Shown here piece by piece: positions 24,167-43,791 of a DNA stretch of 43,791 bases. A model generated the notes under the pieces. That model was not told the origin of the DNA and made no database searches. It saw only the letters and a program-made list of their open reading frames with translations. A program made the position numbers and the translations under genes. Every line of letters begins with the position of its first letter. Position 1 is the first letter of the stretch. Source of the stretch: a virus (Duplodnaviria; Heunggongvirae; Uroviricota; Caudoviricetes); IMG/VR virus record IMGVR_UViG_648861009_000009; one strand, written 5' to 3'.

Positions 24167-24473
24167 CTTCTACTCCGGCTTTTTTAGCAGCGAAGCGTTT
24201 GATAAGCGACCCAATCGAGTCAGTACCGATGTAGCCGATGAACACGCTCGTTATATAAGCGAGATTGCTACTTAGTCCTGCGAAGTCGAGAAGGTCACGA
24301 ATGAACCAGGCGATAATGGCGCACATCGTTGCGTCGATTACTGTTTTTGTAAACGCACCGCCATTATATCTGCCGCGAAGGTACGCCATTGCAAACGCAA
24401 GGATTGCCCCGATGCCTTGTTCCTTTGCCGCGAGAATGGCGGCTAACAGGTCATGTTTTTCTGGCATCTTCAT
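24150..24473 (-). CDS. S: Holin S (dual-start S107/S105)
   Basis: 107 aa; [34 protein letters not shown] near-identical to lambda S. Confidence 0.95.
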
Positions 24474-24771
24474 GTCTTACCCCCAATAAGGGGATTTGCT
24501 CTATTTAATTAGGAATAAGGTCGATTACTGATAGAACAAATCCAGGCTACTGTGTTTAGTAATCAGATTTGTTCGTGACCGATATGCACGGGCAAAACGG
24601 CAGGAGGTTGTTAGCGCAACCTCATGCCACCCGCTTTCACGAAGCCAGCCATTGCGCTGGTTTTCTTTTATGCAAAGCACACCGCACCGTAGCCACAGCG
24701 GATAAGGTGATTATTTTTGTCTGTCTGGTATTTGGTTTGATGCGCTTTCAGAAAGGTCGTGCTTAAAACGC

Positions 24772-35491: not shown

Positions 35492-35582
35492 GCCTATAGC
35501 AGATTTACGAGTCTGCTATGTGAGCAATGTCGCTCGTAACTAAACAGGAGCCGACTTGTTCTGATTATTGGAAATCTTCTTT

Positions 35583-35608
35583 GCCCTCCAGTGTGAGGGC
35601 GATTTTTT
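35583..35608 (+). terminator. Rho-independent terminator
   Basis: GCCCTC-CAGTGT-GAGGGC followed by GATTTTTTA. Confidence 0.65.
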
Positions 35609-35628: not shown

Positions 35629-35997
35629 ATGTCAAACATCAAAAAATACATCATTGATTACGACTGGAAAGCATCAATAGAAATTGAAATCGACCATGAC
35701 GTAATGACAGAGGAAAAACTTCACCAGATTAATAATTTCTGGTCAGACTCTAAATACCGACTCAATAAACACGGCGCTGTATTAAATGCTGTATTAATCA
35801 TGCTGGCGCAACATGCTCTGCTTATAGCAATTTCGAAAGACTTAAATGCATATGGTGTTGTTTGTGAGTTCGACTGGGATGATGGAAATGGTCAGGAAGG
35901 ATGGCCTCCAATGGATGGTAGCGAAGGAATAAGAATTACCGATATCGACACATCAGGAATATTTGATTCAGATGATATGACTATCAAAGCCGCCTGA
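35629..35997 (+). CDS. Hypothetical acidic protein (terminator-bracketed moron)
   Basis: 122-aa ORF with RBS GAGGA just after terminator. Confidence 0.5.
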   Translation: MSNIKKYIIDYDWKASIEIEIDHDVMTEEKLHQINNFWSDSKYRLNKHGAVLNAVLIMLAQHALLIAISKDLNAYGVVCEFDWDDGNGQEGWPPMDGSEGIRITDIDTSGIFDSDDMTIKAA

Positions 35998-36031
35998 GAG
36001 CGTTTTTAAAGAATACAACGAAGGAGGATAT

Positions 36032-36886
36032 ATGAGTGAAGTAACAGATTTAGTTGTTATTGAAAAAGCAAATGCAATGACTGTATTTCAGTCTGCCGAC
36101 CAGATTGAAGAAATCCTTCAAAAGGTTGAACGTGAAGTTATGTCCTTTGTGCCTGATATCACAACGGCAAAGGGCAGAAAGGAGATCGCTTCTCTGGCGT
36201 ATAAAGTTGCGCAGACGAAAACATATCTCGATGGTCTTGGCAAAGACCTTGTTGCTGAACTGAAGGAAATTCCAAAGCTAATTGATGCCAACCGCAAGAC
36301 AGTGCGCGATCGCCTTGATGAACTGAAAGCCAAGGCGCGCCAGCCTCTTACTGATTATGAGGAAGAACAGGCGCGGATTAAAGCCGAAGAAGAAGCTAAG
36401 GCAGCAGCTGAAGCTCTCGCAAAGCAAATTGAGTCTGACCATGAAATAGCGATTTTGATGGATCGCGAATTTGACCGCCAAAGAGAAGAGGCAAGACTCA
36501 AAGCGGAGCAGGAAAAGCGAGAGCATGAAGAACGATTAAAAAGAGAAGCTGAAGAGAAAGCCAGAGCAGAAGCCGAAGCAAAGGCAAAAGCCGAAATTGA
36601 AGCAGCAGCAAGGCGAGAAGCAGAAGCTAAGGCCGCAGCGGAACGTGCAGAGCGTGAACGCATTGAAGCCGAGCAACGAGCACAGCGCGAAGCAAAAGAG
36701 GCAGCAGAACGAGCTGAAAGAGAAAAGCAGGCAGCAATTGAAGCAGAACGCAGAAAAGCACAGGAGGAGGCTGAACGAATCCGTCGCGAGGCTGAAGCAA
36801 AAGAGCAAGCCAGAATAGCAGAAGAAAAAGAATCAAGGACGAAGAAGAGCGCAGAGCAAAGGATAAAGCTCACCGGAAAGAAGTAA
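36032..36886 (+). CDS. Coiled-coil protein with long E/A/K/R-rich low-complexity region; possible frameshifted C-terminus to 36999
   Basis: 284-aa ORF, RBS AAGGAGGA; stop-free downstream frame encodes ...NNKILADLIKVGASEDVAKNIITAIVKGEVFATKITY. Confidence 0.55.
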   Translation: MSEVTDLVVIEKANAMTVFQSADQIEEILQKVEREVMSFVPDITTAKGRKEIASLAYKVAQTKTYLDGLGKDLVAELKEIPKLIDANRKTVRDRLDELKAKARQPLTDYEEEQARIKAEEEAKAAAEALAKQIESDHEIAILMDREFDRQREEARLKAEQEKREHEERLKREAEEKARAEAEAKAKAEIEAAARREAEAKAAAERAERERIEAEQRAQREAKEAAERAEREKQAAIEAERRKAQEEAERIRREAEAKEQARIAEEKESRTKKSAEQRIKLTGKK

Positions 36887-37022
36887 ATAACAAAATACTT
36901 GCTGACCTTATCAAGGTTGGCGCATCAGAAGATGTTGCTAAAAATATCATAACAGCCATCGTAAAAGGCGAAGTATTCGCAACAAAAATAACCTACTAAT
37001 AAACCAACATAAGGAACCACCC

Positions 37023-37154
37023 ATGATTTACGCAATCGCGGGAGGCGCTCGCATGGGTGCCTTCCAACTAAATGAATCTTTACTTGAACGAATCACCCGT
37101 AAATTACGTGACGGATGGAAAAGAGTTGAGGTCTTATTATGCGCAATGAAATAG
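37023..37154 (+). CDS. cIII: CIII (FtsH inhibitor)
   Basis: 43 aa; ESLLERITRKLRDGWKR matches lambda CIII core; RBS AAGGAA. Confidence 0.75.
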   Translation: MIYAIAGGARMGAFQLNESLLERITRKLRDGWKRVEVLLCAMK

Positions 37155-37291
37155 CCATCAATCACCAGATGCTTCGTGCTGCACAGAACAAAGCAGTAAT
37201 AGCCAGATTTATTGGTGATTCAAAAATGTGGCTTGAAGCAAATAAAGCGATGAAATCAGCTATCAACCTTCCGTGGTATCGCAGGAAATGA
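37139..37291 (+). CDS. Kil-like small protein
   Basis: 50-aa ORF overlapping cIII 3' end; IARFIGDSKMW resembles remembered lambda Kil motif. Confidence 0.45.
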   Translation: MRNEIAINHQMLRAAQNKAVIARFIGDSKMWLEANKAMKSAINLPWYRRK

Positions 37292-37366
37292 GTTTTACAG
37301 ATAACTGGTCAGACGAAGAATCCATTCGTCAGATGAAAGAATTAATCGGTAACGAAGGAGATATTC

Positions 37367-37537
37367 ATGTCACTTGCAACCACAGTGAAGGAGAGCAAGT
37401 TACAGAGACGCATGTACACGCAGCAGGCGTTAATGTATCGCCAGAAGGGAGATCGTGAAGGTGTTCGCGTATTTTTAAATGCGGCAAAGACTGAAGTATT
37501 AAATCAGCGTTATTTCCTTGGGCCATGTCCATTCTGA
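37367..37537 (+). CDS. Small protein immediately upstream of erf (Arf-like position)
   Basis: 56-aa ORF with RBS GGAG; alternative overlapping frame 37288-37458 also possible. Confidence 0.35.
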   Translation: MSLATTVKESKLQRRMYTQQALMYRQKGDREGVRVFLNAAKTEVLNQRYFLGPCPF

Positions 37538-37547
37538 GAACAATCAT

Positions 37548-38153
37548 ATGAGCAAAGAATTTTACGCAAGACTGGCAGCTATTCAGGAGAATCTGAACGC
37601 GCCAAAGAATCAGTACAACTCATTCGGCAAATATAAATACAGAAGCTGCGAAGATATTCTTGAAGGCGTTAAGCCGTTACTGAATGGTCTGTTTTTATCA
37701 ATCAGCGATGAAGTTGTGTTGATTGGTGATCGGTATTACGTGAAAGCCACGGCAACTATTACCGATGGCGAAAACAGTCATACAGCAACCGCTCTTGCAC
37801 GAGAGGAAGAAAGCAAGAAAGGAATGGATTCTGCACAAGTTACGGGAGCTACAAGCTCTTATGCACGCAAGTATTGCCTCAATGGTTTGTTCGGCATTGA
37901 TGATGCGAAAGATGCAGATACCGACGAGCATAAACATCAGCAGGACGCAGCAGCAAAGCAATCAAAACCATCACCTACACCTGAACAGGTTCTAAAAGCA
38001 TTCACTGACGCAGCATTGCAGAAAAACACCGTAGAAGAGCTTAAACAGGCGTTCGCCAAAGCGTGGAAGATGCTCGAAGGCACACCGGAGCAGCACAAAG
38101 CGCAGGACGTTTACAACATCAGACGAGACGAATTAGAAGGAGCGGCTGCTTAA
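37548..38153 (+). CDS. erf: Single-strand annealing protein Erf
   Basis: MSKEFYARLAAIQENLNAPKNQYNSFGKYKYRSCEDILEGVKPLL matches P22 Erf. Confidence 0.85.
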   Translation: MSKEFYARLAAIQENLNAPKNQYNSFGKYKYRSCEDILEGVKPLLNGLFLSISDEVVLIGDRYYVKATATITDGENSHTATALAREEESKKGMDSAQVTGATSSYARKYCLNGLFGIDDAKDADTDEHKHQQDAAAKQSKPSPTPEQVLKAFTDAALQKNTVEELKQAFAKAWKMLEGTPEQHKAQDVYNIRRDELEGAAA

Positions 38154-38536
38154 TGGCACATTCGATTACTGTAAGACTAAACAAGCCCGCAAGAGAGTTT
38201 CAGGCCGGGGAAAATATCGGATTCAACATCCGTGCTGGAGTTCAGTATTACGATCGCCAGACAAAAAAGAAAGAATGGACAAACTACAGCGCCGTTGTAT
38301 TTGCCAAGCCGGGAGCGCAAGCGGATTACTACCGTAGTGTTCTTGTTGAAGGTGGCATTGTTGAAATTACCGGAGAAAACATCAGGGTTGATGTTTATCA
38401 GGGGCAAAATGGTCAATCAATCACTCTTGAATTACTGAATGCAAAGATTGGATTTGCAACTTCAGGAAATAGCCAACAGCAGCAAAGTAGCAATCATCAA
38501 AATCATCCTGAATACGACGATTCAATTCCCTTCTAA
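38153..38536 (+). CDS. ssb: Single-stranded DNA-binding protein
   Basis: ATG overlaps erf stop (TAATG); Gln-rich linker; acidic C-terminal tail DDSIPF as in SSB. Confidence 0.75.
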   Translation: MAHSITVRLNKPAREFQAGENIGFNIRAGVQYYDRQTKKKEWTNYSAVVFAKPGAQADYYRSVLVEGGIVEITGENIRVDVYQGQNGQSITLELLNAKIGFATSGNSQQQQSSNHQNHPEYDDSIPF

Positions 38537-38559
38537 AGTAGCAACATAAGGATTCCATT

Positions 38560-38853
38560 ATGCCAGCGCCTATGTATGGTGCGGATGACCCGCGCCGCTG
38601 TTCCGGCAATTCCGTATCGGAGGTGCTGGATAAATTCAGAAAAAACTACGACCTGATAATGTCTCTACCGCAGGAAACGAAAGAGGAAAAGGAATTTCGC
38701 CACTGTATATGGCTTGCAGAGAAAGAAGAACGCGAGCGAATTTACCAGACATCAATCCGACCATTCCGCAAAGCCACATATACCCACTTCCCTGAAATTG
38801 ACCCGCGCCTGCGTAATTACCGCTCACGCTATGGCGCTATCAGTAATGACTGA
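38560..38853 (+). CDS. Hypothetical protein
   Basis: 97-aa ORF. Confidence 0.4.
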
Positions 38854-42543: not shown

Positions 42544-43791
42544 CTATATTGCTGAAGGTACAGGCGTTTCCATAACTATTTGCTCGCGTTTTTTACTCAG
42601 GAAGAAAATGCCAAATAGCAACATCAGGCAGACAATACCCGAAATTGCGAAGAAAACTGTCTGGTAGCCTGCGTGGTCAAAGAGTATCCCAGTCGGCGTT
42701 GAAAGCAGCACAATCCCAAGCGAACTGGCAATTTGAAAACCAATCAGAAAGATCGTCGACGACAGGCGCTTATCAAAGTTTGCCACGCTGTATTTGAAGA
42801 CGGATATGACACAAAGTGGAACCTCAATGGCATGTAACAGCTTCACTAATGAAATAATCCAGGGGTTAACGAACAACGCGCAGGAAAGGATACGCAACGC
42901 CATAATCACAACACCGATAAGTAATGCATTTTTTGGCCCTACCCGATTCACAAAGAAAGGAATAATCGCCATGCACAGCGCTTCGAGTACCACCTGGAAT
43001 GAGTTGAGATAACCATACAGGCGCGTTCCTACATCGTGTGATTCGAATAAACCTGCATAAAAGACAGGAAAGAGTTGTTGATCAAAAATGTTATAGAAAG
43101 ACCACGTCCCCACAATAAATATGACAAAAACCCAGAAGTTTCGATCCTTGAAAACTGCGATAAAATCCTCTTTTTTTACCCCTCCCGCATCCGCCGCTAC
43201 ACACTGGTGACCCTTATCTTTAAAACGCATGTTGATCATCATAAATACAGCGCCAAATAGCGAGACCAGCCAGAAGTTGATATGGGGACTGATACTAAAA
43301 AATATGCCGGCAAAGAACGCGCCAATAGCATAGCCAAAAGATCCCCAGGCGCGCGCTGTTCCATATTCGAAATGAAAATTTCGCGCCATTTTTTCAGTGA
43401 AGCTGTCAAGCAAACCACATCCCGCCAGATACCCCAGGCCAAAAAAGAGCGCCCCCAGAATTAGACCTACAGAAAAATTGCTTTGCAGTAACGGTTCATA
43501 AACGTAAATCATAAACGGTCCGGTCAAGACCAGAATGAAACTCATACACCAGATGAGCGGTTTCTTCAGACCGAGTTTATCCTGAACGATGCCGTAGAAC
43601 ATCATAAATAGAATGCTGGTAAACTGGTTGACCGAATAAAGTGTACCTAATTCCGTCCCTGTTAATCCTAGATGTCCTTTCAGCCAAATAGCGTATAACG
43701 ACCACCACAGCGACCAGGAAATAAAAAAGAGAAATGAGTAACTGGATGCAAAACGATAGTACGCATTTCTGAATGGAATATTCAGTGCCAT
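42544..43791 (-). CDS. cscB: Sucrose:H+ symporter CscB (LacY-family MFS)
   Basis: 415 aa, 12-TM, matches remembered E. coli CscB; csc locus is known to lie near argW in sucrose-positive strains. Confidence 0.85.
   Translation of the reverse strand: MALNIPFRNAYYRFASSYSFLFFISWSLWWSLYAIWLKGHLGLTGTELGTLYSVNQFTSILFMMFYGIVQDKLGLKKPLIWCMSFILVLTGPFMIYVYEPLLQSNFSVGLILGALFFGLGYLAGCGLLDSFTEKMARNFHFEYGTARAWGSFGYAIGAFFAGIFFSISPHINFWLVSLFGAVFMMINMRFKDKGHQCVAADAGGVKKEDFIAVFKDRNFWVFVIFIVGTWSFYNIFDQQLFPVFYAGLFESHDVGTRLYGYLNSFQVVLEALCMAIIPFFVNRVGPKNALLIGVVIMALRILSCALFVNPWIISLVKLLHAIEVPLCVISVFKYSVANFDKRLSSTIFLIGFQIASSLGIVLLSTPTGILFDHAGYQTVFFAISGIVCLMLLFGIFFLSKKREQIVMETPVPSAI

Follow-up and report, generated by a model that had tools for sequence, protein, structure and literature searches.

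The only activity recorded for the phage gene family discussed here comes from the GenBank annotation of phi80, according to which Agt/Mog neutralizes the toxicity of GamL, an inhibitor of RecBCD and SbcCD. The phi80 record describes the product of agt (PHI80_40, AFV29176.1), a protein of 322 residues, as "anti-toxin for Gam; Mog (modifier of Gam)" and puts the gene immediately before gamL ("toxic without Mog"), recT, and exo. Literature searches on Agt, Gam toxicity, Sf6 gene 33, and TolA/Erf returned nothing relevant, and a 2025 survey that covers recombination modules of the lambdoid type names GamL but not Agt. A second described member is gp33 of phage Sf6 (NP_958209), an intact protein that matches phrog_1376, a family of unknown function, over its full length. 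D3-like Pseudomonas phages (D3 Orf53) have the N-terminal domain in common with these proteins, at ~54% identity.

The locus analyzed here lies in a viral DNA sequence of 43,791 nucleotides, referred to below as the window, which is overall a P22-like (Lederbergvirus) prophage adjoining tRNA-Arg(CCT). Its positions 36032-36999 very probably constitute one gene, an orthologue of Sf6 gene 33 and phi80 agt/mog, which is a frameshifted and dispensable accessory gene of the pL operon and is recurrently lost in prophages. Sf6 gene 33 is the direct orthologue, with 98.6% DNA identity and the same neighbors (cIII, kil, erf, and ssb), but it is intact, unlike the window copy. The gene order in the window is DUF2528, agt', cIII, kil, erf, ssb, and abc2, with the recombination module at 37548..38853 (Table 1). 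The intact form of the gene resembles phi80 agt/mog in its length of 322 residues, its three-part architecture, and its place in the pL operon upstream of recombination genes. However, agt directly precedes gamL-recT-exo in phi80, whereas the window has cIII-kil-erf-ssb-abc2, no gamL, and a frameshifted copy of the gene.

Table 1. Features of the agt/mog-family locus and its neighbors, in window positions.
Feature	Position	Strand	Basis or remark
DUF2528 protein, upstream neighbor	35629..35997	+	Pfam PF10800, E 1e-45
Shine-Dalgarno AAGGAGG	36021-36027	+	4 nt upstream of ATG; direct sequence reading
Truncated agt/mog-family ORF (Sf6 gp33 orthologue), 284 aa + TAA	36032..36886	+	ORF list
Conserved N-terminal helical domain, aa 1-115	36032..36376	+	Homologue clusters, AlphaFold
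E/A/K/R-rich long-helix region, aa 108-266, purine-rich T-poor DNA	36353..36829	+	Composition, AlphaFold
A5 run, frameshift site (A6 in intact homologues)	36825..36829	+	DNA alignments
Out-of-frame tail ESRTKKSAEQRIKLTGKK + stop	36830..36886	+	Without counterpart in any homologue
Displaced native C-terminal coding segment R267..Y322 + TAA, -1 frame	36829..36999	+	Homology
Intergenic A3 (A4 in most relatives), just past native stop	37001..37003	+	DNA alignments
cIII	37023-37154	+	Pfam Lambda_CIII, E 4e-15
kil	37139-37291	+	Pfam Lambda_Kil, E 2e-20
erf	37548-38153	+	Pfam ERF, E 6e-44
ssb-like gene	38153-38536	+	Position and similarity to post-recombinase ssb genes annotated in Sf6 and E. coli GN04171
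abc2, anti-RecBCD	38560-38853	+	Pfam Anti-RecBCD_p2, E 1e-64

The family member in the window is broken by the loss of a single nucleotide. Megablast hits to the segment, at 95-99% identity, come from 231 phage records and from 1,769 E. coli records representing 1,753 genomes; the matches consistently exceed the query length by 2 nt. The segment is a single CDS of 969 nt, encoding 322 residues, in Sf6, APC_JM3.2, E. coli GN04171, mEp043, HF4s, and MS6192. The homologues collected in PHROG 1376, Sf6 gp33, and more than 100 E. coli prophage copies likewise represent one 969-nt gene, and the length of 322 residues recurs in E. coli, Enterobacter, Citrobacter, Cronobacter, and Salmonella. DNA alignment with Sf6, APC_JM3.2, and GN04171 reveals that one A is missing from the window in GAAGAAAAA(A)GAATC. 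Single-base differences occur at two A runs in this alignment: five residues in the window versus six in the relatives (A5 versus A6), and, past the native stop codon, three versus four (A3 versus A4). Insertion of one A at the first site yields an ORF of 322 residues with the architecture of the family, ending in ...HRKEVNNKILADLIKVGASEDVAKNIITAIVKGEVFATKITY. The initial annotation of this DNA had proposed that an indel detached the true C terminus from the ORF, and these alignments bear that proposal out.

As a consequence of the deletion, the reading frame shifts past Lys266, and 18 unrelated residues (ESRTKKSAEQRIKLTGKK) are added before the stop codon at 36884-36886. The last 56 codons of the native gene now lie in the -1 frame and lack a start codon. 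What remains of the product is the N-terminal domain together with the long ER/K helix; the conserved tail is lost. In protein alignments, this tail (HRKEVNNKIL...ITY) is fused to the helix in all close and distant homologues, and its motif, HR..IN..L...G..E..AK....AI..G.I....I.Y, is kept in members down to 36% identity. None of the homologues ends where the window ORF does; they run on in frame through the peptide encoded at 36886-36999, as the initial annotation had suspected. An in-frame C-terminal tail, which characterizes the family, is missing from the window copy, where the tail is still encoded but in the -1 frame. The window copy is a disrupted family member by descent and not a non-member.

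The deletion from A6 to A5 probably arose by replication slippage, of which it would be a typical product. The indel had been placed within the repetitive DNA; the indel itself is confirmed, but its site is an A homopolymer where the E/A/K/R-rich region ends on the 3' side. The lesion lies outside the repeat units and corresponds to a homopolymer slip instead of a rearrangement of repetitive DNA. Repetitive DNA of this gene does gain and lose units, as seen from in-frame length variants of the helix in other members (P0003-P0018 and P0099), with total lengths of 245, 275, 290, 300, 306, 309, and 333 residues. The variation is confined to the helix region, and frame and tail are kept in all of these variants. 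Because the tail is conserved across the family, the function of the tail-less protein would be expected to be lost or strongly reduced. A rare -1 slip of tRNA-Lys, from AAA at 36827-29 to AAA at 36826-28 with AGA as the next codon, would yield the exact wild-type protein, and the A5 allele may therefore be slightly leaky.

Composition sets the remaining ORF apart. Residues 108-266 of the 284-residue ORF consist to 80% of E, A, K, and R, a proportion that reaches 88% for residues 160-266, in agreement with an earlier reading that put the E/A/K/R-rich part at ~150 residues. The DNA of this region has a weak 6-nt periodicity, and T accounts for only 8.4% of the coding strand between 36380 and 36880. 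Spurious ORFs had been anticipated in several frames and do occur (for example, 36355..36873 on the minus strand, 172 aa, and 36597..36818 on the plus strand, 73 aa); they result from the T-poor, purine-rich character of the strand. Up to codon 266, the ORF is 99% identical to an E. coli protein (P0001), and phrog_1376 and phrog_17211 match it with E values of 4e-80 (residues 1-276) and 2e-75, respectively. No database record was found for the exact 284-residue product.

The second frame opens past a TGA at 36793, is stop-free from 36796, and ends at the TAA at 36997-36999. It had been described as non-repetitive and without an ATG, which is accurate, and GTG, TTG, and CTG are also absent from 36796-36996. 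Given the base composition, the chance of 37 stop-free codons past 36886 is P ~0.07, which is weakly significant alone. The significance of this frame comes instead from its homology to the tail: the 37 residues encoded at 36886-36999 match the final 37 positions of phrog_1376 (E 2e-11) and phrog_21365 (E 9e-20). In principle, the two frames could be two genes, one for the 284-residue protein and one for a separately translated small C-terminal peptide, and the annotation of phage CUS-3 does list two ORFs at this place. This arrangement is the least probable of those considered here, since the open frame has neither any of the four start codons nor a ribosome-binding site, the tail is fused in every intact family member down to 36% identity, and the two CUS-3 ORFs result from a +1 frameshift at another site.

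Programmed recoding would offer another way of joining the frames. The A run would then be a deliberate site of -1 ribosomal or transcriptional slippage giving both a 284- and a 322-residue product, and the tRNA-Lys slip described above, which restores the exact wild-type sequence, would suit such a role. Nevertheless, recoding is very improbable. The gene is simply in frame with A6 in 94 of 98 copies, and IMG/VR holds the A6 form in 108 contigs and the A5 form in 1; other copies are inactivated by unrelated lesions. In addition, the zero frame contains no canonical X XXY YYZ heptamer, and no obvious stimulator is seen. A run of five A residues is below the length of known efficient slippage tracts. 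A programmed -1 frameshift of the dnaX type was rejected on similar grounds, as the conserved out-of-frame arrangement with a slippery heptamer is absent.

The loss of one A from a homopolymer is also what a sequencing or assembly artefact would look like. In that event, the true sequence would be A6, the gene would be intact with 322 residues, and the assembler would have under-called the homopolymer. Single-nucleotide homopolymer changes are the commonest sequencing error. Several observations favor an artefact in addition to the nature of the lesion: a second 1-nt difference in an A run lies 176 nt downstream; E. coli ET151, which has both differences, contains another gene marked "frameshifted" 1 kb away; and one IMG/VR contig (L014) has A5 although its haplotype differs in nothing else from that of six A6 contigs. 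Because of this last case, the A run is seen to change recurrently, or to be miscalled recurrently, independently of the allele discussed next.

In an alignment of 98 full-length gene copies, this A is absent only from the window, ET151, the avian pathogenic strain APEC IMT5155, and L014. A 64-nt probe over the site matched exactly in 1 of 508 E. coli complete-genome records (ET151) and in 0 of 34 phage records. The copies in the window, ET151, and IMT5155 are mutual nearest neighbors among the 98, being 3 SNPs apart, and occupy different prophage backgrounds. That A5 is common to the three most closely related haplotypes, which come from independent projects, argues against an artefact. Furthermore, IMT5155 carries an additional nonsense substitution (Q30, CAA to TAA) that cannot be a homopolymer error. 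The A3 variant, located between the native stop codon and the cIII ribosome-binding site, is a common polymorphism found in 12 of the 98 copies. The window has no other isolated homopolymer indels relative to all its relatives; an indel census against seven of them disclosed no general excess of such indels, which rules out general homopolymer noise in the window. An artefact is accordingly considered unlikely, and the three-copy pattern speaks for an inherited allele in which decay has set in. RefSeq annotates the genes of both closest relatives as "frameshifted", so A5 in the window is probably an inherited mutation and not a read error.

The same allele is thus already marked by RefSeq in two E. 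coli genomes. What the window contains is an unremarkable pseudogene, a frameshifted copy from a phage gene family that is known but poorly characterized, and a single-base frameshift in a prophage accessory gene matters little as a finding. Further apparent frameshifts were encountered in other genes of related elements. In ET151, the second "frameshifted" gene (L008 3859-4241) is ~1 kb downstream of the agt pseudogene, beside erf, which suggests that the prophage is decaying or else that the assembly is error-prone. In the ssb-like gene of HF4s, an A run is one nucleotide shorter than in the window (window 38263-38268; L006 ~24259-24654); the gene appears frameshifted there, and the HF4s record splits it into two CDSs. 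In phi80, the methylase gene damL (L013 4495-5380) is annotated as a pseudogene with a frameshift and potential slipped-strand synthesis, which adds one more homopolymer-type lesion among lambdoid accessory genes.

Disruption of the agt-like gene itself is recurrent. Across the loci compared (L001-L122 plus the window), 17 of the 98 copies are disrupted, with lesions of six kinds: a Q20 amber mutation (in two haplotype groups), a 14-nt deletion, a Q30 ochre mutation, a +1 change at 36367, the change from A6 to A5, and a -1 change at 36927. Several lineages carry two hits, and 16 E. coli complete-genome records contain the Q20 amber allele. At the same loci, flanking genes are disrupted in 2 of 352 copies (abc2, 1/89; ssb, 1/15; cIII, 0/97; kil, 0/95; erf, 0/48; DUF2528, 0/8). 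Counted as independent events, the excess is weak (~7-8 versus 2) and only suggestive. It fits a gene that is dispensable and repeatedly lost.

Annotation has followed one of these lesions. Phage CUS-3 (L123 313-1282) has the +1 allele, and its annotation gives one ORF of 116 residues and another of 214. Two PHROG families, phrog_17211 (116 aa) and phrog_21365 (214 aa), appear to derive from split halves of the gene of PHROG 1376, and they probably stand as separate families because of a +1 split of the CUS-3 type.

Frequent independent breakage beside intact recombination genes hints that the gene is either dispensable or counter-selected in lysogens. A stronger reading, in which inactivation in E. 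coli prophages preferentially hits the agt/mog-family gene, so that the gene is more than a neutral casualty, is doubtful. Selection could remove the gene in lysogens if it were costly or toxic when leaky, or if it were sensed by a host defense system. Alternatively, the tail-less 284-residue form may have an altered activity on the anti-RecBCD/recombination module, for example a dominant-negative one.

The HF4s record led to phi80 Agt as a relative, and phi80 Agt shares 49% identity with the intact E. coli orthologue over 322 residues (E 3e-35), including both terminal domains. The N-terminal domain defines a very large family, matching 4,996 representative clusters (50% identity) at E<=1e-3. 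Both this domain and the tail motif are conserved in 52 diverse representatives with identities as low as 36%, and the invariant residues T45, R49, G70, K78, D85, R88, L95, P105, and E110 are all present in the window ORF. AlphaFold predicts an all-helical N-terminal domain with a mean pLDDT of 83. For the intact orthologue, the predicted model has one uninterrupted helix at 107-295, with pLDDT >90 for 120-230, and a short C-terminal helix. The initial annotation had called the protein a coiled coil; a long single helix of the ER/K type is the better description. In the model, this helix looks like a spacer between two small conserved ends.

Searches beyond the family returned little. Neither the intact nor the truncated protein matched anything in Pfam, NCBIfam, or PADLOC (defense systems), and a profile search of PDB sequences gave compositional coiled-coil hits only. 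Foldseek detected no solved relative of the N-terminal domain model (best E 4.6), and in BFVD it returned only the family itself. PGAP and many records name the protein "cell envelope biogenesis protein TolA", a likeness limited to the E/A/K-rich helix composition of TolA domain II. Identity with TolA was rejected: no TolA model in Pfam or NCBIfam matches even at E<=10, and both ends of the protein are those of a family specific to phages. The name is an artefact of low sequence complexity. This misnaming affects thousands of database entries, while the real family, with its ~5,000 clusters (50% identity), has no Pfam model and no solved structure.

Gene neighborhood gives some indication of what the family does. 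The agt-like gene accompanies recombination modules of more than one type, occurring with Erf and an exonuclease in a D3-like Pseudomonas phage, with GamL, Bet, and Exo in Klebsiella phage Mulock, and with ERF and SSB in Vibrio phage V039C. A place in the early-left operon beside a recombination or anti-nuclease module is common to these three phages, phi80, and the window. Together with the phi80 annotation, this neighborhood suggests that the family may modulate phage anti-nuclease or recombination functions. As the window has abc2 but no gamL, the role of a Gam antitoxin cannot be the general function of the family.

Some further features of the region deserve mention. A terminator-like hairpin followed by a T run is located at 35581-35602, upstream of the DUF2528 gene; in Sf6, the annotated terminator tL2A has a comparable place in the early-left operon, just upstream of gene 33. 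The gap between kil and erf (37273-37537) contains two small overlapping ORFs, 37273-37458 and 37367-37537, for which Pfam gives no match, and the C termini of the first differ among relatives in 57 of 87 copies. A Pfam scan of the ssb-like gene was likewise without a match. When large window segments served as queries, coverage by any single phage record or complete E. coli genome stayed below 80%. The window looks like a complete P22-like prophage. At one end (1-2402), a host gene is accompanied by tRNA-Arg(CCT) at 1009-1083 and by an ORF of integrase size at 1209-2402, and the other end (42544-43791) has an MFS transporter gene, a layout that agrees with the annotated loci of vB_EcoP-611R6 and MS6192.
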